A stretch of DNA of 64,000 nucleotides from Anaerolineales bacterium (GTDB lineage: Bacteria; Chloroflexota; Anaerolineae; Anaerolineales; UBA11858): NCBI GenBank assembly GCA_049644685.1, contig JBARSJ010000131.1, forward strand, positions 307 to 64,306, given 5' to 3'. Below the pieces are notes generated by a model that saw only the letters and a program-made list of their open reading frames with translations, was not told the DNA's origin and did no database searches. How positions within the stretch are numbered: the first letter of the stretch is position 1; the number at the start of each line of letters is the position of its first letter. This document shows positions 1,787-52,634 of the stretch, one piece after another. A program made the position numbers and the translations under genes.

Positions 1787-3628
1787 TCACTCCACAGTAA
1801 CAGATTTTGCCAGGTTGCGGGGCTGATCGACATCCAAACCGCGTTGAGCAGCGATATGATAAGCCAACAACTGCAGCGGGATCACCGTGGTAACCGGGGA
1901 TAACATCCAGGGGGTTTCAGGCACACTTAAAACAAGATCTGCCTGCCCCTGGATCTGTTCATCACCTTCCGTAGCAACCGCTATTACCCGCCCACCCCGG
2001 GCTTTAACCTGCTCGATCTGGCTAAACATTTTTTCGTACCAGGGATCACGGGGAGCAATTACCACAACCGGCAGATCTGCATCAATCAAGGCAATCGGTC
2101 CATGTTTCATTTCTCCAGCAGGATATCCTTCGGCATGGATATAAGATATCTCTTTCAGTTTCAGGGCGCCTTCATAAGCAGTGGGCATGTTCACGCCCCT
2201 TCCGAGATACAGCGCACTTTGCGCTTCCAGCAAGCTTTCAGCGACCCTCTTTACCTCTCCTTCCTGATCAAGGCAACGTCCCGCAAGGTCCGGAACCAAT
2301 CGCAAATCATCCACCAGCTGACGGCGTTGGCTTTCATCAATCGTACCTCGCAGTTCTCCCAGAAGAATTGCCAGCATATACAAATCCACCAACGGCGCAG
2401 TATAAGCTTTAGTGGAGGCAACCCCAATTTCGGGTCCGACCTGCATGGAAATAAATCCATCTGCAATCCGCATCGCCTGGGATCCAATCGCATTTACAAT
2501 TGACCACAAGGTGGCTCCTTTTCGGCGTCCTTCTTCCATTGCCGCTAAAGTGTCGGCAGTTTCCCCGGATTGACTAATTGCCAAAACAACAGTATTCTCA
2601 TCAACTATCGGATCCTGATAGCGGAACTCAGATCCAATTTCCACTTCCACCGGAATGCGGGCAATCCTTTCTATCAGCACTTTACCCACCATTCCTGCAT
2701 AGGATGCCGTTCCACAGGCGATAATAAAGATTTTCTTGATTTCTTTCACTTTCGCAGGGGAAATATTTAAACTCGGTATTTGAATAGAGCCCAATTCAAA
2801 ATCAACTCTTCCCGCAATGGTATCCGTCAATGAGCGAACCTGTTCATGGATCTCTTTGTGCATAAAATGGCGGTATTCGCCTTTTTCTGCCGAAACCGGA
2901 TCCCAGGGAATATTATGTACCTCCGGCTGGATCTCTTCCCCATCCAGGGTCATTACCACCAAACCCTCGCGGCTGACCACGGCCATTTGGCGGGACTCAA
3001 GGAAAACCATTTCCCGGGTATGTTCCAGGATAGCAGGCAAATCTGATGCGATGTACATCTCATCCTTTCCATAACCAATCACAACCCCGCCGGCGTTACC
3101 AATTCTGGCGGCGATGATTTTATCCGGCTCGTTTTTGCTTAACACAACAATGCCGTGAGCGCCTTTTAAGAGAAGCAGGGCTTGATGGACAGCATCTGTA
3201 AGACTACTTCCGCCGGATAGATAACGCTCGATCAGGTGGACTATCACTTCCGAATCTGTTTCTGATTGAAAAACAATCCCTTCGCTTTCCAACTCATCCC
3301 GAAGTGCGGAAAAATTTTCCACGATCCCATTATGAACCAGGACCACGTCGCCTGTCATCCCCAAATGAGGATGTGCGTTGCGGGTATTTGGCACACCATG
3401 AGTTGCCCAGCGGGTGTGTCCAATCCCAATGTTGCCCTTTAAGGGTGATTCATTAACCAGTTGACTCAATCTTTCCAATTTGCCGGCATCCCGCCTGATT
3501 TCGATACCCCCGTTCTCAAGAACTGCAATACCGGCTGAGTCGTACCCCCGGTATTCAAGCTTTTTTAGCCCATTCATAATGATGGGCGTGGCGTTTTGGG
3601 GTCCAATATAGCCTACTATTCCACACAT
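1787..3628 (-). CDS. glmS: Glutamine--fructose-6-phosphate aminotransferase (isomerizing)
   Basis: 613 aa. N-terminal MCGIVGY (catalytic Cys2), two SIS domains, C-terminal ...LAKSVTVE. Confidence 0.95.
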   Translation of the reverse strand: MCGIVGYIGPQNATPIIMNGLKKLEYRGYDSAGIAVLENGGIEIRRDAGKLERLSQLVNESPLKGNIGIGHTRWATHGVPNTRNAHPHLGMTGDVVLVHNGIVENFSALRDELESEGIVFQSETDSEVIVHLIERYLSGGSSLTDAVHQALLLLKGAHGIVVLSKNEPDKIIAARIGNAGGVVIGYGKDEMYIASDLPAILEHTREMVFLESRQMAVVSREGLVVMTLDGEEIQPEVHNIPWDPVSAEKGEYRHFMHKEIHEQVRSLTDTIAGRVDFELGSIQIPSLNISPAKVKEIKKIFIIACGTASYAGMVGKVLIERIARIPVEVEIGSEFRYQDPIVDENTVVLAISQSGETADTLAAMEEGRRKGATLWSIVNAIGSQAMRIADGFISMQVGPEIGVASTKAYTAPLVDLYMLAILLGELRGTIDESQRRQLVDDLRLVPDLAGRCLDQEGEVKRVAESLLEAQSALYLGRGVNMPTAYEGALKLKEISYIHAEGYPAGEMKHGPIALIDADLPVVVIAPRDPWYEKMFSQIEQVKARGGRVIAVATEGDEQIQGQADLVLSVPETPWMLSPVTTVIPLQLLAYHIAAQRGLDVDQPRNLAKSVTVE

Positions 3629-3809
3629 GGGTTTACCCTCCCTGAATCAGTTCAGCCATATTTGATCCATACCTGCTGCAGCAAAATCCACAAGAATTTT
3701 GCCCAAATATCCAGGCCAGACCTGCAAGCTGAGTTTAGGTTGGAGTCACCAGGGATGATTTTGTCCCACCGGTCGCCCGGGGATTTGTCATCCATTTAAG
3801 TTAGGAGGG

Positions 3810-3997
3810 AAAAATCGGAGAGTGACAATCTCCGGAGGGCTTCCGCTGATAGTTCGATTTTCCTGACCCAATTGCCCCCGGTCAGTTAGCCTCCATAAAA
3901 GGAGGAACCCTCATCCTCGTCAACTCAAGAACCTGCCTTTTGTCAAATTTATCCGTTTATCTATCCAAATGACAATAAATCTTGAGCCCTTGCGCTA
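3810..3997 (-). ncRNA. Probable glmS ribozyme (GlcN6P-responsive self-cleaving leader)
   Basis: On the minus strand upstream of glmS: AGCGC (the cleavage-site motif A^GCGC, complement of 3992-3996), then a long hairpin closed by CTCAAG...CTTGAG. This is followed by GUUGACGAGGAUGAGGG, matching the conserved GACGAGGA core as I remember it, then CCUCC/GGAGG, CUGACC/GGGUCAG and CGGAGA/UCUCCG hairpins. Boundaries are approximate. Confidence 0.65.
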
Positions 3998-4123
3998 TTT
4001 TCCCAATTTGACCTTTTCCAGTCACCTCCTTCCTCTAAATTATCCGCGAAGGAATATAAGATATTAAGTATTCCCTCGCGGTTGTTATCTTACTCGAAGA
4101 ACCAATTTCCTGCAACCATTCCC

Positions 4124-41528: not shown

Positions 41529-41602
<74 letters not shown>

Positions 41603-41720
41603 CTGTCTTGGTCCCATCTCGAACCTCATAGTGAGGAAGTAGAGCAATTCCTGGCAATGCTCAGATTTGAGCAGAAAAGCGAGGTAAAAAGGCTCTCAGA
41701 ATTCCTCAAATGAGGTAGAG

Positions 41721-41960
41721 ATGGGTTCTTCATTTAAAGGCACAAATCCTGATGTAACAGAAGATTACATTACCGTAAAAACTGCATCCAAATTCAGTGG
41801 TTACAACGAACAATACCTTCGAAGGTTATTAAGGGGGGGAATTTTCAAGACCAGAAAGATTGGACAACTCTGGTTGATTGAACAAGCTGATTTTGGAAAA
41901 TACTTTTCTGAAGCTACAAAATCAGATGATAAGCGATTTGGCCCCCAATCAAGTACGTAA
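41721..41960 (+). CDS. Small helix-turn-helix DNA-binding protein (excisionase/MerR-like HTH)
   Basis: 79 aa. The segment ITVKTASKFSGYNEQYLRRLLRGG....RKIG..WLI....F..Y resembles HTH_17/excisionase-family proteins. GAGG RBS upstream. Confidence 0.5.
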   Translation: MGSSFKGTNPDVTEDYITVKTASKFSGYNEQYLRRLLRGGIFKTRKIGQLWLIEQADFGKYFSEATKSDDKRFGPQSST

Positions 41961-41971
41961 CATAATTGTTA

Positions 41972-41977
41972 TATAAT
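41972..41977 (+). promoter_or_regulatory. Candidate -10 box (TGTTATATAAT context) upstream of cassette array B
   Basis: TATAAT with a TG two nt upstream. It lies between the HTH gene and the direct repeats. No convincing -35 box. Confidence 0.3.
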
Positions 41978-41988
41978 ACAGATAAGCA

Positions 41989-42057
41989 GATATCAGTCCA
42001 AATGGACCGATTATTACCGATATCCGGTCCAAATGGACCAATATCTATAGGTTAGCT
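41989..42057 (+). other. attI-like junction: two direct repeats followed by the first GTTAGCT crossover box
   Basis: GATATCAGTCCAAATGGACC (41989-42008) and GATATCCGGTCCAAATGGACC (42019-42039). Each contains the inverted repeat GTCCA-aa-TGGAC. A third, partial AATATC follows, then GTTAGCT at 42051-42057. Confidence 0.45.
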
Positions 42058-45824: not shown

Positions 45825-45916
45825 CAGGCAAGCTAACGTCTCGCTGGAGCGGACCGCGCGCGAGGCGCTGGAATTGAAGTTGGTGTGTGGGGCTGCTCAG
45901 CTCGAAACTGTTAGCT
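45825..45916 (+). other. attC site B3
   Basis: GGCAAGCTAA (45827-45836) is the reverse complement of the cassette start TTAGCTTGCC (45139-45148). The arm GCTG(G)AGCGG(A)CC pairs with GGCTGCTCAGC. It ends in GTTAGCT (45910-45916). Confidence 0.75.
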
Positions 45917-45926
45917 AGGTCAGAAT

Positions 45927-46037
45927 AAGGTACAATTCAGACAATTATTAAGAAAAATGTATTCGAAAAGTGGTTCGTGATCTGTCCACTAACGTCCACT
46001 AGAATCGCTTGACGAATCCGGCGGGCGATTATTTTTC
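45927..46037 (+). ncRNA. Repeated noncoding module R1: -10-like box, conserved 29-nt motif, terminator hairpin (candidate small transcript)
   Basis: TACAAT (45931-36). Motif GGTTCGTGATCTGTCCACTAACGTCCACT (45972-46000). Hairpin AATCGC/GCGATT followed by ATTTTT (46003-46036). Confidence 0.35.
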
Positions 46038-46143
46038 ATAAGCAGGTTGATTCCCCTTATGCATTGAAAATATTTTTTATTATGCTACTATCAATTTATA
46101 CAGATTAATTAAAGATTACCCACGCTAATCAATATAGCTTTCC

Positions 46144-46181
46144 AAAAAACAATGCCAAAATATAAAGGCATTGTTTTTTTA
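46144..46181 (+). terminator. Rho-independent terminator inside cassette B4, upstream of the aminopeptidase gene
   Basis: AACAATGCC-aaaatataaa-GGCATTGTT followed by TTTTT, and preceded by AAAAAA, so it may work in both directions. Confidence 0.6.
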
Positions 46182-46228
46182 TCAAAACGGCATACTTTAT
46201 GGGAATAAAATCTGGAAGAATAAAACAA

Positions 46229-47476
46229 ATGAAAACCCAAGATTTCGATCAAAAACTAGAAAAATATGCAGAGTTAATCGTCAAAGTCGGATTAAATCTT
46301 CAGCCTGAACAACGACTTTTTCTCACTGCCATTTCACTAGATGTCGCACCCCTCGTCAGGCAAGTGGTGAAAAGTGCCTATAAAAATGGGAGCAGATTGG
46401 TGTCAGTCCTGTGGTTAGACGAACAGCTGGATAAAATCAGGCATCAGAACGCGCCACGCGATTCGTTTGAAGAATTCCCTACCTGGAGGACAGATGGGGA
46501 ACTGCAATGTATTGAGCGTGGAGATGCTAACTTATACATTGTCGGCAGAAACCCTGAATTATTAAAGGACCAGGACCCTAAACTTGTTGCGATTGCTGCC
46601 CGGACTGTAGCTAAAAATAATAAACCAATACTTGGCCATCTGGGGAAAAATTCTATACAGTGGTCCTGTGTAGCTTCACCTACTCCAGATTGGGCCATAA
46701 AAGTGTTTCCAGATAATACACCACAAGATGCAGAAGCGCGATTGTGGGATGCGGTCTTTAAGGCGTGCCGAATAGATGAACCTGATCCAGCCGTTTTTTG
46801 GGAGAAACATCTTGACAATCTTGAAAAAAGAGCAAAATACCTCACTGATAAACAGTACTCAGCATTACAATTTACAGGGCTGGGCACGAACCTCACAGTT
46901 GGTTTACCGGAAGGTCACATTTGGGGAGGAGCCAAAGTTAAAACCCCGTCGAATATTTCCTTTGTAGCCAATTTACCTACAGAAGAAGTATTTACCTTAC
47001 CTCACAAAAATAAGATTGAGGGTACTGTTACAGCAACCAAACCTCTTAGTTATCAAGGCAATCTGATTGAGAATTTCAGCTTTACCTTTTCTGAAGGAAA
47101 AGTTGTTAATTTTTCCGCAGAAAAAGGTGAAGAAACATTGCGCAATTTGCTAGAAACCGACGAGCATGCCAAATCTCTGGGTGAGGTCGCATTGGTTCCC
47201 CATCAGACACCGATCTCGCAATTAGACTTAATATTCTTGAACACGATATATGATGAAAATGCTTCTAATCACCTTGCATTAGGAAATGCATACCGATTCA
47301 CACTTGTAGATGGAAAGACAATGTCTGATGAAGAATTCGAGCAAGCTGGTGGAAATGACAGCCTGATTCATGTTGACTTCATGTTTGGATCTGGCGAGAT
47401 GGACGTAGACGGGTTGCTGGCCGATGGGGTAACAGAACCAGTAATGCGCGCAGGAGAATGGGCATTTGATTTGTAG
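46229..47476 (+). CDS. M29-family aminopeptidase (AmpS/PepS/aminopeptidase T type) (cassette B4)
   Basis: The N-terminal F...L.KYAEL.VKVGLN.Q..Q.L pattern is typical of M29. The C-terminal motif is H.A.G......G.N.S..H.D. The start at 46229 (MKTQDF) is preferred over 46199. Confidence 0.8.
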   Translation: MKTQDFDQKLEKYAELIVKVGLNLQPEQRLFLTAISLDVAPLVRQVVKSAYKNGSRLVSVLWLDEQLDKIRHQNAPRDSFEEFPTWRTDGELQCIERGDANLYIVGRNPELLKDQDPKLVAIAARTVAKNNKPILGHLGKNSIQWSCVASPTPDWAIKVFPDNTPQDAEARLWDAVFKACRIDEPDPAVFWEKHLDNLEKRAKYLTDKQYSALQFTGLGTNLTVGLPEGHIWGGAKVKTPSNISFVANLPTEEVFTLPHKNKIEGTVTATKPLSYQGNLIENFSFTFSEGKVVNFSAEKGEETLRNLLETDEHAKSLGEVALVPHQTPISQLDLIFLNTIYDENASNHLALGNAYRFTLVDGKTMSDEEFEQAGGNDSLIHVDFMFGSGEMDVDGLLADGVTEPVMRAGEWAFDL

Positions 47477-47485
47477 CCTAAAGTT

Positions 47486-47546
47486 AAGGTCCTAACCCGC
47501 GCTGTAGCAAAAGCTAGGATCGCGCTACTGAGCTCATCTGTTAGAT
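47486..47546 (+). other. attC site B4
   Basis: TCCTAAC (47490-96) ... CTGAGCTCATCT-GTTAGAT (47540-46). It carries the family signature at both ends. Confidence 0.7.
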
Positions 47547-47567
47547 CGCTCAAGATAATTAAATTCT

Positions 47568-47630
47568 AAGGTTATAATTAGGAAAAATCTATTAGAAAAG
47601 CGGTTCGTGATCTGTCCACCAATGCCCACA
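47568..47630 (+). ncRNA. Repeated noncoding module R2 (inside ORF-less cassette B5)
   Basis: GGTTATAAT (-10 at 47573-78), then GGTTCGTGATCTGTCCACCAATGCCCAC (47602-29). Confidence 0.35.
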
Positions 47631-47646
47631 AACAAAATAACCCTCA

Positions 47647-47655
47647 TGCTATACT
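47647..47655 (+). promoter_or_regulatory. Extended -10 box TGCTATACT inside ORF-less cassette B5, reading through the short attC into cassette B6
   Basis: Identical 9-mer to 10356-10364. The distance to the GTTA crossover is 90 nt, against 85 nt at array A. Confidence 0.4.
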
Positions 47656-47701
47656 TCTTGCAGAGGGGATAACATCTTTGGATGTTACCTTCCACGTCGA
47701 T

Positions 47702-47752
47702 ACATAACGCCTAAATGATTATCACGCAGGTGAAACATAATTAACGTTATGT
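47702..47752 (+). other. Short attC-like site B5 (51 nt class)
   Basis: ACATAACG / CGTTATGT form an 8-bp outer stem, followed by an internal loop. The inner stem is ATTAT-CAC / GTG-(aaac)-ATAAT. 30/32 nt are identical to 10422-10453. Confidence 0.5.
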
Positions 47753-47920
47753 CCAAAGACTTTTGAAGATCTGCTATTTTAGGTGACCAATTGGAGGAAT
47801 CCTTGTGCCCCCTTTTGTAAAAAGCATGCACCTTTGCCATGATTTCTATTTCGAGTGTTGCTCCGATAATGGAAAGACATTTTCCTGAAATTTGCCGTTA
47901 CCTTAGATGAGGAGTGTTTT

Positions 47921-49153
47921 ATGACGCAGTTGGATTCAAAATTTATCAGAAGTCAATTTCCTGCATTCCAAGAGCCGTCATTAAATGGATGGGGCTTTTT
48001 TGAAAATGCGGGCGGGTCCTATACTTGCCGGCAGGTGATTTCCTGCCTGAACGACTACTATACACAGACTAAGGTTCAACCCTATCATAATTACCCAGCA
48101 GCACAAAAAGCGGGTGCGGCAATGGATGAATCCTACAGTCGACTGGCAGCATACCTCAATGTCAGCGAAGATGAAGTCCAGTTTGGCCCCTCAACCACTC
48201 AGAACCTCTATGTTCTGGCCCAAGCCTTCCGAGAGCTGTGGAACGAGGGAGATGAAATCATCCTGTCCAACCAGGATCACGAGGCCAATGCCGGATTTTG
48301 GAGGCGCCTTGAAAAAACAGACATCGTGATCAAGGAATGGTGCGTTGATTCTGAAACAGGATTATTGAATCCGGATGATTTGGATGCCATGCTGTCCCAT
48401 AAAACCAAGTTGCTGGCATTCCCTCATTGTTCCAATATTATTGGCCATGTCAATCCGGTGACTGAAATCGTATCAAAGGCAAAAGCTGCCAACGTCTGCG
48501 TAGTAGTGGACGGGGTGGCCTATGCCCCTCATGGACTGCCGGACATTGGATCACTGGGAGCAGATATTTACCTGTTTTCCCTTTACAAGACCTGGGGACC
48601 ACATCTCGGGCTCATGACCATTAACAAAGAACTCATGGATAGGTTGCCCAACCAGGGTCACTTCTTTAACAGTCACATTCTTCGAAAAAAGATGCTGCCG
48701 GCTGGCCCTGACCATGCCCAGATCGCTGCCGCTTCTGGTGTGGCCCACTATCTTGATACTGTTTATGAGCACCATTACTCCAAATCGGTGGATCAGGCAG
48801 AAAAAGGAAGGCATCTTAGAAAACTATTCCGGGATCATGAGAGAAATCTGCTGGCAAAGCTCCTGGAATGGTTGCGGCAGCGCGACGATATTTACATTGT
48901 TGGACCAGATGATCCCGAACTACGCGTTCCAACCGTATCGATCATACCCCAAAAGAAATCCATTGATGAGGTCCAAGCGGTACTGACAGCAAATAAACTG
49001 ATGACAGGGCAGGGACATTTTTACGCTGCCCGCCCGTTAATGGGATTGAACATCCCCATTGACACCGGTGTTCTACGATTTTCATTCCTCCATTACACAA
49101 TTGAGGATGAGATCAACCAACTTATTGACGGGCTTTCCACAGCTCTGGGTTAA
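47921..49153 (+). CDS. Class V aminotransferase-fold PLP enzyme (cysteine-desulfurase / selenocysteine-lyase-like) (cassette B6)
   Basis: 410 aa. The motif FSLYKTWGPH is a candidate PLP-lysine site. GAGGAG RBS upstream. Confidence 0.7.
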   Translation: MTQLDSKFIRSQFPAFQEPSLNGWGFFENAGGSYTCRQVISCLNDYYTQTKVQPYHNYPAAQKAGAAMDESYSRLAAYLNVSEDEVQFGPSTTQNLYVLAQAFRELWNEGDEIILSNQDHEANAGFWRRLEKTDIVIKEWCVDSETGLLNPDDLDAMLSHKTKLLAFPHCSNIIGHVNPVTEIVSKAKAANVCVVVDGVAYAPHGLPDIGSLGADIYLFSLYKTWGPHLGLMTINKELMDRLPNQGHFFNSHILRKKMLPAGPDHAQIAAASGVAHYLDTVYEHHYSKSVDQAEKGRHLRKLFRDHERNLLAKLLEWLRQRDDIYIVGPDDPELRVPTVSIIPQKKSIDEVQAVLTANKLMTGQGHFYAARPLMGLNIPIDTGVLRFSFLHYTIEDEINQLIDGLSTALG

Positions 49154-49243
49154 TACGATGAATCCCCGCAGAGTCTGTCTTGAAATCTGTCAGATCAAAG
49201 TACACTCAATTTTTGGAACCTAGGGAAATGGCATATCAAAAAC

Positions 49244-49329
49244 ACCTCATAACCCGCCGGTCAACCGGACAGCAGGGGCTTCCGATCCGCTCCAGCCCTG
49301 CTACTGGTTACCTCTGCGATAGGTTGAGA
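49244..49329 (+). other. attC site B6
   Basis: CTCATAAC (49246-53). GGT(C)AACC pairs with GGTTACC, and AGCAGGG(G)CT pairs with AGCCCTGCT, giving two extrahelical bases on the 5' arm. It ends in GTTGAGA (49323-29). Confidence 0.6.
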
Positions 49330-49347
49330 AAGAAATTCGCTTACTAT

Positions 49348-49447
49348 AGGGTTATAATTCAGGAGAATATTATATAAAGCCGGTTCGAGATCTGTCCACT
49401 AACGTCCACTCAATTACCGCTATTCTAAGAGGGTAGCGGTTTTCTTG
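49348..49447 (+). ncRNA. Repeated noncoding module R3: -10-like box, conserved motif, terminator
   Basis: GGTTATAAT (-10 at 49353-58). Motif GGTTCGAGATCTGTCCACTAACGTCCACT (49382-49410). Hairpin ACCGCTA/TAGCGGT followed by TTTCTT. Confidence 0.4.
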
Positions 49448-49529
49448 TTCTATAATACAATTATACAGAACTGCAACGATACTTCCTGAACATCACCATA
49501 AATCGAACCATTAAACTGGATAACCTACC

Positions 49530-50177
49530 ATGCGAACATATATTCAACTGGAAAACACACATATATATGAACTCCCGGTGGAATTTCAAGATGATGATGT
49601 TCGGTACTCAGAGAGCCTGGTAGAGTATTTTTTAAATAAATATACCAAGGAGAAGGATTTAGTATTTGATCCGTTTGCAGGATTTGGAACCACCCTGTTG
49701 GTTGCAGAGAGAATGGGGAGGATACCCCTCGGTATAGAATTCGATGAGAGTCGCGTGCAGTATATTCAATCGAAGTTGAAGCAGCCAGCCAAAATAATTC
49801 TTGGGGATTCACGTAAACTTAAATCATATAACTTGCCAGCCTTCAACTTCTCAATTACCTCGCCTCCCTATATGAGCAAATTCGATAGAGAAAACCCATT
49901 CACAGCATATACAACAAAAGGAAAAGGCTATTCGGCATATCTTAATGATATTCGATCCATTTATAAACAGATGGCTCATTTAATGGCAACTGATGCAATG
50001 GTTGTTCTAGAAATTGCAAATATCAAAAAAAGAGGCAGTGTCACTACACTTGCCTGGGATATTGCCAAAGAAATATCTCAGGTGCTTCATTTTGAAGGTG
50101 AAATAATTGTGAATTGGGATAATTATGGCGGTGGTTACGATCATAGTTATTGTTTGATATTTACAAATCCAAATTAA
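49530..50177 (+). CDS. DNA methyltransferase (N6-A or N4-C type), no restriction partner nearby (cassette B7)
   Basis: 215 aa. The SAM-binding motif FDPFAGFGTT precedes the catalytic SPPY. Confidence 0.75.
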   Translation: MRTYIQLENTHIYELPVEFQDDDVRYSESLVEYFLNKYTKEKDLVFDPFAGFGTTLLVAERMGRIPLGIEFDESRVQYIQSKLKQPAKIILGDSRKLKSYNLPAFNFSITSPPYMSKFDRENPFTAYTTKGKGYSAYLNDIRSIYKQMAHLMATDAMVVLEIANIKKRGSVTTLAWDIAKEISQVLHFEGEIIVNWDNYGGGYDHSYCLIFTNPN

Positions 50178-50193
50178 CTTCCGATAGAAAGTC

Positions 50194-50281
50194 AGTTCGA
50201 GATCTCCAACACCCTCGTGTTGGAGTCGCAGGATGGGGAAATTGACCTTCCCCTTCCCGCTGATGTCCACCAACGTCCACT
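50194..50281 (+). repeat. Module R4: the conserved motif split by a 58-nt insertion, at the right end of array B
   Basis: AGTTCGAGATCT (50194-205), then a 58-nt insert with hairpins CCAACAC/GTGTTGG and GGGGAA/TTCCCC, then TGTCCACCAACGTCCACT (50264-81). No promoter box is present. Confidence 0.5.
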
Positions 50282-50287
50282 AAGCTA

Positions 50288-50330
50288 AAGCCCCCACCCC
50301 TGGAAAGGAAATGGGGGCTTGCTTTTTATT
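50288..50330 (+). terminator. Rho-independent terminator closing array B
   Basis: AAGCCCCCA-cccctggaaaggaaa-TGGGGGCTT followed by GCTTTTTATTT. Confidence 0.7.
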
Positions 50331-50359: not shown

Positions 50360-51424
50360 CTACAAGCGAATCACATCTCCGCAAAACTCACAAGTAATAC
50401 TCTCCATCCCCCGTAGCAGGACCTGATTGATCGCCCCGCCGCAGGAGGGGCATTTTGTTGGTGCATCCTTGACTTTTTTGGCAGCAGCTTGGTCAATGGC
50501 GATGGCTCGCGTGGCGTCAAATTCCTTAGCTTTGGCCCGTTTGAGCAGGGCTTTCCATTCGTCGCCCCTTTGCCAGATGTGCAAATGCAGGAGGTCAAAG
50601 GGCGCACCGCTACTAAAGCGCACCTCGATATAGTCATCTTTATTCAAAAAACCCTCTTTGCGGGCCTTTGTCTCCTCGATCAGCGCTAGGGGGGCCTCCC
50701 AGAGGAGATCCTGGACCAACTTTTTCTCCGTGGCCACAAAAAGCACCTTCTTCGTCGCCACCTTTTCCTTCTGTTCAAAAAGGATCCGCTGGTCGGTCAA
50801 ATACAGTACTCCCTCAGGGTCATCTTTAGACTGCTTGCCGCCCTTCGCCCAAACTGCCTTGACCGCCATGATCCCTGATTCAGTTGCCAGCAGCTCAAAA
50901 CTCGCCTCGCTGAGTTCTGTCAGCATCCATTCCAGTTTGGTGAGATGGTTTTTTACTTTCTGAACCTCGCCGCTGAATTGATCGTATCCCCCGCGGATGC
51001 TTTCCTCCGCTGCCTCGACGCGGCCTTCCAGCGATTCCACCTGGGATTTGAGCTTGCTCACTCGGGGACGCAGGGCCCCCGGCGCTCCGCTTTCTCCCCC
51101 CAACCCCGCGATCTGCGTCTCCAAAGGGCGCAAGGACCGCTCCATGATACTGGCTTCTTTCTCAATCTGCGCTTCGAGTTTGGGCGCGATCCCGGCCCAT
51201 TCTTTTTCAAAATCTGCCGCCATCTCTTCCAATTCTTTCTCGAAAGCATACCCACTCTCACGCAAGGATTCGATCCGCCGATCCATCCCGTTGACAGATG
51301 TACCCAAATCCTCCACACTATCCCGGATCTCCGTCATCCGCACCGAGGATTGTAAATCCCGCAAAGAAGATTGCAGGTTTTGAATATCGTTTTTAACTTG
51401 CTCGGCAAGGCTTTGATTTGACAT
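50360..51424 (-). CDS. Coiled-coil protein with bacterial PH/GRAM-like domain and C-terminal zinc ribbon; unknown function
   Basis: 354 aa. The N-terminal ~180 aa have heptad-like, Glu/Leu/Ser-rich sequence. GVLYLTDQRILFEQKEK is bPH-like. The C-terminus is CPSCGG...CEFCG. GAAGGAG RBS upstream. Confidence 0.6.
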   Translation of the reverse strand: MSNQSLAEQVKNDIQNLQSSLRDLQSSVRMTEIRDSVEDLGTSVNGMDRRIESLRESGYAFEKELEEMAADFEKEWAGIAPKLEAQIEKEASIMERSLRPLETQIAGLGGESGAPGALRPRVSKLKSQVESLEGRVEAAEESIRGGYDQFSGEVQKVKNHLTKLEWMLTELSEASFELLATESGIMAVKAVWAKGGKQSKDDPEGVLYLTDQRILFEQKEKVATKKVLFVATEKKLVQDLLWEAPLALIEETKARKEGFLNKDDYIEVRFSSGAPFDLLHLHIWQRGDEWKALLKRAKAKEFDATRAIAIDQAAAKKVKDAPTKCPSCGGAINQVLLRGMESITCEFCGDVIRL

Positions 51425-52199: not shown

Positions 52200-52634
52200 A
52201 TGCCGAACAGAAGAGATTTTGATCATATAGGCAGCTTTAATTTCAGGGTGGAAATAAATGGGGTAACTGAGGGCCACTTCATTTATGTCTCTGGTCTTGA
52301 AAGTCAGAGTGAGGTGATTGAATATAGAAATGGCGCTGATAACCTCACCAGAAAAATCCCGGGGCGTACTTCGTATTCTAATATCATAATGCGCCGTGGA
52401 TACAATAATGTGGATGAATTATGGAATTGGCGAAAAAGTGTCACGGATGGGGCTATTAATCGGAGAAGTGGCTCAATATTCATCCTGGGTGCTGATGCGG
52501 AAACTGTAATCACGGAGTTCAATTTTTTTGAAGCCTGGCCCTGCCGCTATGAACTGGGACAATTCAATGGGGACCTCGATTCCGTATTAATTGAAGAGAT
52601 TGAAATCGTTACTGAAAGAATTGAACGAAAATAA
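52200..52634 (+). CDS. Phage tail-tube-like protein (T4 gp19 / 'conserved hypothetical phage tail region protein' family)
   Basis: 144 aa. Pattern F.F.VEI.G.....F..VSGLES..EVIEYR.G.......K.PGR..Y.NI...RG......LW.W.........R..GSI.......E.....F..AWP......F......V.IE.IE. AAAGGAGG RBS upstream. Confidence 0.75.
   Translation: MPNRRDFDHIGSFNFRVEINGVTEGHFIYVSGLESQSEVIEYRNGADNLTRKIPGRTSYSNIIMRRGYNNVDELWNWRKSVTDGAINRRSGSIFILGADAETVITEFNFFEAWPCRYELGQFNGDLDSVLIEEIEIVTERIERK

Follow-up and report, generated by a model that had tools for sequence, protein, structure and literature searches.

Short conserved sites flank the single-gene, Xer-dependent dif modules of Acinetobacter plasmids, the recombinase being encoded elsewhere. 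In tycheposons, partial tRNAs left by serial integration bound stacked cargo beside tRNA genes (bioRxiv 10.1101/2020.12.28.424599); in integrons and in clusters of attC sites lacking integron integrases (CALIN), attC sites bound the cassettes (Cury et al. 2016, PMC4889954); and in large serine integrases the zinc-ribbon-domain motif lies 5 bp nearer the center in attB than in attP (Rutherford et al. 2013, PMC3783163). The 64-kb stretch of DNA analyzed here ("the window"), from an Anaerolineales bacterium, carries behind a tRNA-Val gene a gene array with four copies (R1–R4) of a noncoding module. The 28-nt core of this module derives from the 3′ end of tRNA-Val, and we read it, with a probability of roughly 0.65, as an element-borne recombination (attachment) site that mimics the tRNA-Val 3′ end and marks the joints between modules stacked behind tRNA-Val.

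The locus resembles tycheposons in that cargo stacks directly downstream of a tRNA gene, each piece bounded by a copy of the tRNA 3′ end, in that newer elements would push older ones outward, and in that many modules have no integrase. It differs from them in that the core is not a plain partial tRNA, having a constant 5-bp insert in the T-loop and a conserved 3′ part of its own, in that about a third of the cores lie at a fixed distance from an integron attC, and in that no cognate integrase is tied to the core. The likeness to integrons and CALIN lies in the attC-bounded cassettes of the window and many other loci, in an integron integrase gene (intI) beside the same HTH_17 gene and attI-like repeats in one locus (L099), and in four ends of shared sequence blocks at the attC R′ core; the core itself, however, lies 63–65 nt beyond the crossover, has its own breakpoints, and is in most copies unrelated to attC. 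As an attC site it was rejected, having no R″ (RYYYAAC)/R′ (GTTRRRY) inverted cores, no internal dyad and no hairpin, as was the attC-like hairpin GGTTCGAG...CTCGAACC, whose GTT/AAC triplets are at the outer stem ends and not the inner ones as in attC. With dif modules it shares the short conserved sites that flank single-gene modules, but it is chromosomal, tRNA-linked and without the 11-6-11 dyad, the arms, judged by eye, not being inverted repeats. Partial tRNAs bounding stacked cargo, integrons and integrase-less arrays are all known already; a near-invariant mimic site with a fixed 5-bp T-loop insert, a fixed coupling to attC and a P/B spacing pattern we did not find in the literature.

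A core derived from the 3′ end of tRNA-Val

In the window, GTCCACYAAYGYCCAC occurs four times, always on the + strand (at 45984, 47614, 49394, and 50265) and always with GTTCGWGATCT directly 5′ of it, where shuffling predicts 0.14 copies and none of 100 shuffles reaches four, so that the initial annotation was right to see in R1–R4 four copies of one module. An nhmmer profile of the motif found no further copy in the whole 64 kb. The end of the window's tRNA-Val(CAC) reads GGTTCGAG-TCCATTCGCGCCCAC and the motif GGTTCGAG-ATCTG-TCCACYAACGYCCAC: the core has the layout of a tRNA-Val 3′ end (T-loop, 3′ strand of the T-stem, 3′ strand of the acceptor stem, and discriminator) plus five bases in the T-loop. 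In 14 of the 87 distinct copies collected below, the 3′ part reads TCCAATACCGCCCAC, without a difference from the 3′ end of the tRNA-Val(GAC/TAC) genes that these loci carry. When the loci were rescanned without bias, the spacing from GTTCGAG to TCCA was either 0 or 5 nt and nothing else, the former in 12 tRNA-Val genes and 7 orphan fragments, the latter filled mostly by ATCTG and otherwise by ATCTA, ATCCG, or TTGGG.

The gene order, too, links the motif to tRNA-Val. All 12 tRNAs that ARAGORN called, in the window and in the loci with the motif, are tRNA-Val (CAC, GAC, or TAC); relative to the motif, all 12 lie 0.7–7.8 kb upstream and share its strand. The motif is, then, a direct repeat of the 3′ part of a tRNA downstream of that same tRNA, which is what characterizes a partial-tRNA att repeat. 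The initial annotation had named membership in a known element as one outcome that would overturn its proposal, and the derivation from the tRNA-Val 3′ end is such an outcome; the tandem GTCCAC units that it had taken for an operator are the 3′ strand of the T-stem and the acceptor end of a tRNA-Val-like sequence. As tRNA genes in their own right R1–R4 were rejected, since only the part from the T-loop to the 3′ end is present, with the T-loop lengthened by 5 nt and no full cloverleaf; ARAGORN and Rfam, run on the window, gave a single tRNA call, the one listed in Table 1, and none at R1–R4.

An exact-pattern scan of one genome per species found 13 loci, all in metagenome-assembled genomes (MAGs) of the Anaerolineales/Chloroflexota, distributed over nine MAGs of which several have two or three copies. 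A looser pattern gave 82 metagenome loci, about 18 of them chance matches in G+C-rich coding DNA, and 87 distinct copies from Anaerolineales MAGs and metagenomes were left after removal of duplicates (loci other than the window are cited by L numbers). An exact-pattern scan of IMG/VR and blastn searches against plasmids and phages each gave no match, which rules out the motif as a known phage or plasmid element.

Most copies elsewhere have the order gene, motif, terminator, without attC. In 27 of 82 copies an attC R′-like pentamer starts 63–65 nt upstream of GTTCG, forming a sharp peak, and R1–R3 with their R′ cores belong to this class; that all copies sit just after attC, as had been thought, is true of R1–R3 but not of R4, which begins 17 nt after the stop codon of an open reading frame (ORF). 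TATAAT is found at −30 to −25 in about 60–70% of the 87 copies, with an A-run ahead of the motif, and about a third of the copies, 30–60 nt after a stop codon, have no −10 box. The box had been given as present in R1–R3 and missing from R4, which the boxes of Table 1 confirm, and it is conserved at a fixed distance in most of the homologous copies. A strict criterion places an intrinsic terminator after the motif in 58 of 87 copies (range 58–65). Those of R1 and R3, the only two that had been recognized, are real, but R4 has a strong one as well. The 64-nt A/T-rich linker with its TATAAT, the motif and the terminator after the last attC together form a conserved right-end backbone of integron-type units.

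Individual copies show how the module varies. The hairpin of the R1 terminator belongs to the same family as that 3′ of tRNA-Val(CAC) in L024, while R2 has lost its terminator, which near-identical cassettes in L039 and L016 retain between the motif and the same downstream sequence. R4 had been described as one copy interrupted by 58 nt; the insert is in fact 59 nt long, and L005, L008, and L027 share this long form at about 80% identity, with part of it conserved in L010 as well. The insert forms two hairpins, with three compensatory pairs among four sequences; it also contains GATGGGGAA, in common with a family of left flanks described below.

Reassortment and breakpoints at the core

The two flanks of the core reassort independently. 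When 40 nt on each side were clustered at ≥85% identity, eight of nine multi-member left-flank clusters had all-different right flanks, one left-flank cluster of 16 members had 15 different right flanks, and six of eight right-flank clusters had all-different left flanks. Breakpoints were taken from blocks of ≥92% identity between loci whose ends are not contig ends: five fall precisely on the motif's last base, two directly after GTTCGAG, and four about 60 nt upstream of the motif, at the attC R′ core. IntI accounts for the attC breakpoints, not for those at the motif.

Individual alignments show such boundaries. Window positions 47631–49389 are 98.5% identical to L039, starting one base past R2 and stopping within R3; L055 (93% identical) departs from the window 6 nt past R3, going on into flank B and chromosome; and L024, which matches the window at 86% ahead of the tRNA and at 99% within it, is at background level immediately past CCAC. 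The motif thus marks the boundaries at which inserted DNA is present or absent, and its earlier description as a target for insertion is supported, in the sense of a target or joint, by these breakpoints and by the shuffling of the flanks.

The sequence on the right side of the motif is of four kinds, T, A, B, and Y. The T flank (58–65 of 87 copies) is an intrinsic terminator, in many cases with a promoter-like box after it, and its hairpins come from the same few families as those directly 3′ of tRNA-Val genes. Flank A, nnTCTTGGTCCCATCYCGAACC, is the end of an integron platform, and follows motif copies in L006, L010, L012, L048, and L093 and orphan fragments in L075, L099, and L101. Flank B (12 copies), nnnnTTGAACTCGAACC, always has ordinary chromosomal genes beyond it. 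Flank Y belongs to an element encoding a 331-aa Xer-like tyrosine integrase, of which it is one end, and adjoins tRNA-Val(CAC) in L096 (...CGCGCCCAC/ctcagtcctcacgg, the slash marking the joint) and a motif copy in L050/L098 (...GTCCAC/cttagtcctcacgg). The junctions observed are tRNA/T, tRNA/A, tRNA/Y, motif/T, motif/A, motif/Y, and motif/B, so that the same right flanks (terminators, flank A, and the end of the Xer-like element) adjoin either the tRNA or the core.

Three side observations concern these flanks. A promoter-like box, TGCTATACT or TATAATACAGATAAGCAGA, follows most terminators (window 49445–49469 and 46075–46104; L030, L044, L052, L088), and each unit therefore seems insulated, with its own promoter. 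A family of left flanks (L003, L013, L027, L035, L046, L076, L093) has a covarying hairpin CCCCnnn...nnnGGGG with a loop of about 20 nt, then AAGGCGG before the motif. In L075 (reverse strand, 442–1891), a pair of AbiEi/AbiEii-like genes, judged by eye from their translations, appears to lie shortly before an orphan tRNA-Val fragment that has no insert and runs into flank A.

The joints with flanks A and B have, in addition, a regular geometry. Counted from CCAC, the inverted 8-mer C[TC]CGAACC ends at exactly 22 nt in all flanks A and at exactly 17 nt in 12 of 12 flanks B, so the half lengths are 28 nt (motif) and 22 nt (flank A) as against 23 nt (tRNA) and 17 nt (flank B), invariant in at least 16 joints. 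Relative to the chromosome-type halves, those of the element type are each extended by 5 bp, which yields dyads of 50 and 40 bp centered on the CC of YCC/AC. This is the likeness to serine integrases (PMC3783163): an 8-bp outer motif, GGTTCGAG, inverted on both sides and 5 bp further out in the element-type halves. In contrast to serine-integrase sites, three quarters of the cores have a terminator and not a half-site on their right, and the tandem re-use of the tRNA-proximal joint is unexpected for these enzymes; the 40/50-bp dyad with its 5-bp shift is found only at joints with flank A or B. No resolvase-type N-terminus was found in a regular-expression screen of 1048 open frames, and no large serine recombinase in the ORF clusters or with Pfam on the neighboring genes of the window, these being crude screens.

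A probable attachment site and its alternatives

If the core is an attachment site, its chromosomal partner would be the tRNA gene's own end, GGTTCGAG-TCCA...CCCAC, the core being the same sequence with 5 bp added after GGTTCGAG. Core-carrying DNA circles would be spliced in directly behind the CCAC that ends tRNA-Val, with strand exchange at or beside the terminal YCCAC. Such circles would consist of one terminator-promoter-ORF unit, of mini-integron units or of an entire integron platform, closed by motif/T, motif/A, or motif/Y joints, and would be inserted serially behind the tRNA, newer arrivals displacing older ones away from it. Each core would stay behind as a joint, linking one module to the next or the last one to the chromosome, which would make motif/B, beside the chromosome, the oldest joint. 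The hairpin after the core would be a tRNA-type terminator that moves with the right-hand partner. The observed junction types, taken as a whole, agree with such a serial insertion; the circular intermediates, an ongoing activity, and the enzyme are inferred. The TATAAT box could drive a short transcript or, in motif/A joints, one that reads across into the small ORF and the HTH_17 gene of the platform.

Of all recombinases, the Xer-like integrase alone was seen at the site itself. It is not IntI (the L050/L096 protein scores 56 bits with TIGR02249, the NCBIfam model of the integron integrase, where the cutoff is 265). A 78%-identical relative lies directly after tRNA-Pro(CGG) in L097 (9745–10999), with a homologous element end, so the family switches tRNA targets. 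The tyrosine recombinase of L083 was set aside as part of an IS91-like insertion unrelated to the motif. What lies between tRNA-Val and the motif was rejected as a source of integrases, being unrelated accessory genes (alpha/beta hydrolases, a nitroreductase, a BNR protein, and a beta-lactamase-family protein); Pfam on the other ORFs of the window gave housekeeping genes only in the top 25 of 81 families.

Several points weigh against the attachment site. Pfam on the neighbors found no recombinase at 40–52 kb of the window, no recombinase family recurs among the 450 ORFs of the loci (only hydrolases do), and the single integrase element seen at a core (L050/L098) has a pseudogene for its integrase; for the intact relative in L096, the right end (attR) gave nothing convincing within 21 kb. 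At L039 4256 an R3-type left flank is fused to a clean tRNA-Val(GAC) end directly after GGTTCGAG, within the T-loop, for which a crossover at CCAC does not account, and the terminators, too, reassort independently of the sequence beyond them. The conserved TATAAT and the fixed 63–65 nt to attC go unexplained, and the constant 5-nt insert is not accounted for by a tyrosine-integrase model. Circular joints and empty tRNA-Val/flank B sites were not seen, the loci being short and chosen for carrying the motif, which makes empty sites invisible. The genome and metagenome scans fixed GATCTGTCCA, whose conservation in the seeded copies is by construction; in favor of the site, copies outside the search-pattern selection are at most 2 of 27 bases off the consensus and have unrelated flanks.

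A bolder proposal, tentative and in our view rather unlikely, is that of a second cassette-capture system interleaved with the classical integron: the tRNA-Val 3′ end would act as its attI and the 28-nt core as its attC, the terminator-promoter-ORF units and intI-less mini-integrons would be its cassettes, and a recombinase acting in trans would read the 5-bp, serine-integrase-like spacing code.

A small RNA, as the initial annotation supposed, would be transcribed from the TATAAT box, run through an A-rich leader of about 18 nt and the 28-nt core and stop at the hairpin, giving an RNA of about 90 nt that resembles the 3′ half of tRNA-Val and might work through base pairing or by decoying proteins that bind tRNA. 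The box and the strong terminator 3′ of the core, at the frequencies given above, are as such an RNA would have them, and the core is predicted to be mostly unpaired, as the seed of a small RNA would be. We nevertheless consider it improbable. Pairing probability in the motif, over 56 copies, is 0.3–0.6 and unpatterned, while the hairpin 9–40 nt downstream is strongly paired; there is no conserved pairing in the motif, only variable terminator folds, so that a self-contained structured RNA finds no support. The compensatory changes that had been proposed as a test are not seen in the motif, where nothing covaries outside the terminators, although the R4 insert has them. The putative transcripts of R1 (z = −1.0) and R3 (z = −0.3) fold no better than shuffles; that of R4 folds better (z = −4.6), owing to its insert and terminator. 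Conservation of the leader is poor, and the box is missing in the third of copies that follow a stop codon. As for a sigma-70-type promoter (−35 and −10 hexamers 16–18 nt apart), the −10 is conserved, no −35 hexamer was found on the + strand, and a minus-strand promoter through the R3 motif (TGGACA, 18 nt, TATAAT) was rejected, its −10 not being conserved in other copies. That the module matches no RNA family had been stated from the start and is borne out by Rfam, at both gathering and permissive thresholds. A small RNA leaves unaccounted for the linkage to tRNA-Val, the shuffling of the flanks, the breakpoints at the last base, the insert-free orphans, and the terminator-less joints with flanks A and B.

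The cores might instead be inert scars, decayed tRNA-Val 3′ fragments of old integrations that are repeated only through duplication of the surrounding DNA. Partial tRNAs do build up in islands beside tRNA genes, and most loci have no integrase nearby, but decay predicts varied lesions, and what is found is the same 5-nt spacing and a near-invariant 27-mer in 87 contexts, in at least nine MAGs and in many metagenomes, with unrelated flanks, as well as recent 98.5%-identical blocks bounded by copies; we regard scars of this kind as quite unlikely. Finally, an operator, in which the two GTCCAC units 11 bp apart would bind a regulator such as the neighboring HTH_17 protein and so control cassette expression, is very improbable: GTCCA/TGGAC half-sites do occur in the attI-like repeats of the window (41996–42039) and the HTH_17 gene does belong to the platform, but the GTCCAC pair is not conserved (GTCCAA...GCCCAC in 14 of 87 copies, as in the tRNA), the attI palindromes vary by genome (GGCAAAAGTGCC, GGTTCAAATGAACC) while the core is constant, and most copies have no HTH_17 gene nearby.

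The integron platform and the array in the window

The order in the window is tRNA-Val, the integron platform (without intI, which is lost) with three cassettes, R1, a peptidase unit, R2, an aminotransferase unit, R3, a methylase unit, R4, and chromosome (Table 1). The attC calls rest on inspection of the sequence and simple folding, not on a dedicated attC model.

Table 1. Features of the tRNA-Val array, with positions in the window.
Feature	Position	Strand	Remarks
tRNA-Val(CAC)	41529–41603	+	last 23 nt (41581–41603), GGTTCGAGTCCATTCGCGCCCAC, are the insert-free ("B-type") counterpart of the motif
Small ORF across the tRNA/flank A joint	41570–41713	+	
Flank A, left end of integron platform, tgtcttggtcccATCTCGAACC	41604–41625	+	follows tRNA-Val itself; inverted GGTTCGAG 8-mer ends 22 nt after CCAC
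HTH_17 excisionase-family gene	41721–41960	+	
attI-like region	41966–42056	+	TATATAAT; two direct repeats GATATC-n-GTCCAAATGGACC; GGTTAGC 42050–42056; intI missing
attC-like site preceding R1	45832–45915	+	GCTAAC...GTTAGC
R1 module-left, A/T-rich spacer	45916–45971	+	−10-like TACAAT 45931–45936
R1 core	45972–45999	+	GGTTCGTG-ATCTG-TCCACTAACGTCCAC
R1 intrinsic terminator	46003–46037	+	hairpin 46003–46030, then T-run
attC-like site preceding R2	47491–47545	+	R′ core GTTAGA 47540–47545
R2	47546–47629	+	module-left with TATAAT 47573–47578; core 47602–47629; terminator deleted
attC-like site preceding R3	49248–49323	+	R′-like core GATAGG 49318–49323
R3	49324–49447	+	module-left with TATAAT 49353–49358; core 49382–49409; terminator 49416–49447 (hairpin 49416–49440, then TTTTCTT)
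R4 long form	50194–50329	+	AGTTCGAGATCT 50194–50205; 59-nt two-hairpin insert 50206–50264; GTCCACCAACGTCCAC 50265–50280; terminator ~50282–50329

The small ORF that spans the tRNA/flank A joint has a stop codon overlapping the start of the HTH_17 gene, and is conserved at the amino acid level between the window and L012 (~310–470), as ...SW(S/P)H(L/P)EP(H/R)SEE(V/L)EQFL...K followed by the stop; in L012 the ORF has its ATG just left of the motif and reads through the motif in the matching frame. An "Anaerolineales bacterium" MAG encodes a protein with 100% identity to the HTH_17 protein of the window. In L099/L100 (10001–11216) the same gene is followed by a divergent 320-aa integrase that scores 448 bits with TIGR02249 (cutoff 265), and 3′ of intI come TATAAT, two palindromes, GGTTATG, and cassettes, so that in these Chloroflexota integrons the HTH_17 gene has a bona fide integron integrase as its fixed neighbor. 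The platform of the window is that of L099/L100 without intI, and the array is accordingly an integrase-less one. The attI-like regions (window; L099 11250–11360; L009, L022, L032) contain TATATAAT and two repeats, whose palindromic cores GTCCAAATGGAC, GGCAAAAGTGCC, and GGTTCAAATGAACC differ by genome and occupy the same positions; the regions end in GGTTAGC or GGTTATG, and in the window the attC-bounded cassettes begin past GGTTAGC.

At the other end, R4 is the last joint ahead of the chromosomal flank gene, a 354-aa coiled-coil ORF (50360–51424, − strand); L002 is syntenic here, its linker-motif-terminator module being the last element before the same gene. With a T4 gp19-like tail-tube gene at 52200–52634 (+ strand), this array border may belong to a contractile injection system or to a prophage remnant. 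Within the array, an extra short attC-like palindrome (cATAACg...cGTTATg) lies at 47698–47750, between R2 and the aminotransferase ORF, and in L083 an IS91-like element (tyrosine recombinase and Y2 transposase) is inserted exactly at the GTT of that palindrome. Far from the array, a glmS ribozyme (3741–4007, − strand; Rfam RF00234, 42.6 bits) lies in the ordinary arrangement upstream of a glmS-like ORF (1787–3628, − strand) with SIS and GATase domains.

The gene arrays behind tRNA-Val would thus hold two interleaved site-specific systems, attC/IntI and the tRNA-Val mimic site, in a poorly studied phylum, with the module at the cassette starts as the hinge between them. The motif is a simple marker for hotspots of variable genes in the Anaerolineales, and the core and the tRNA end are a concrete substrate pair with which to look for the recombinase. 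The 5-bp spacing rule, if functional, would point to an unrecognized serine-integrase-like enzyme or to a convergent design of the site. Should there be a second cassette-capture system, the recently exchanged units bounded by cores, which carry an ORF, an attC site, and the fixed 64-nt linker, may represent a movement of attC cassettes that is independent of IntI.

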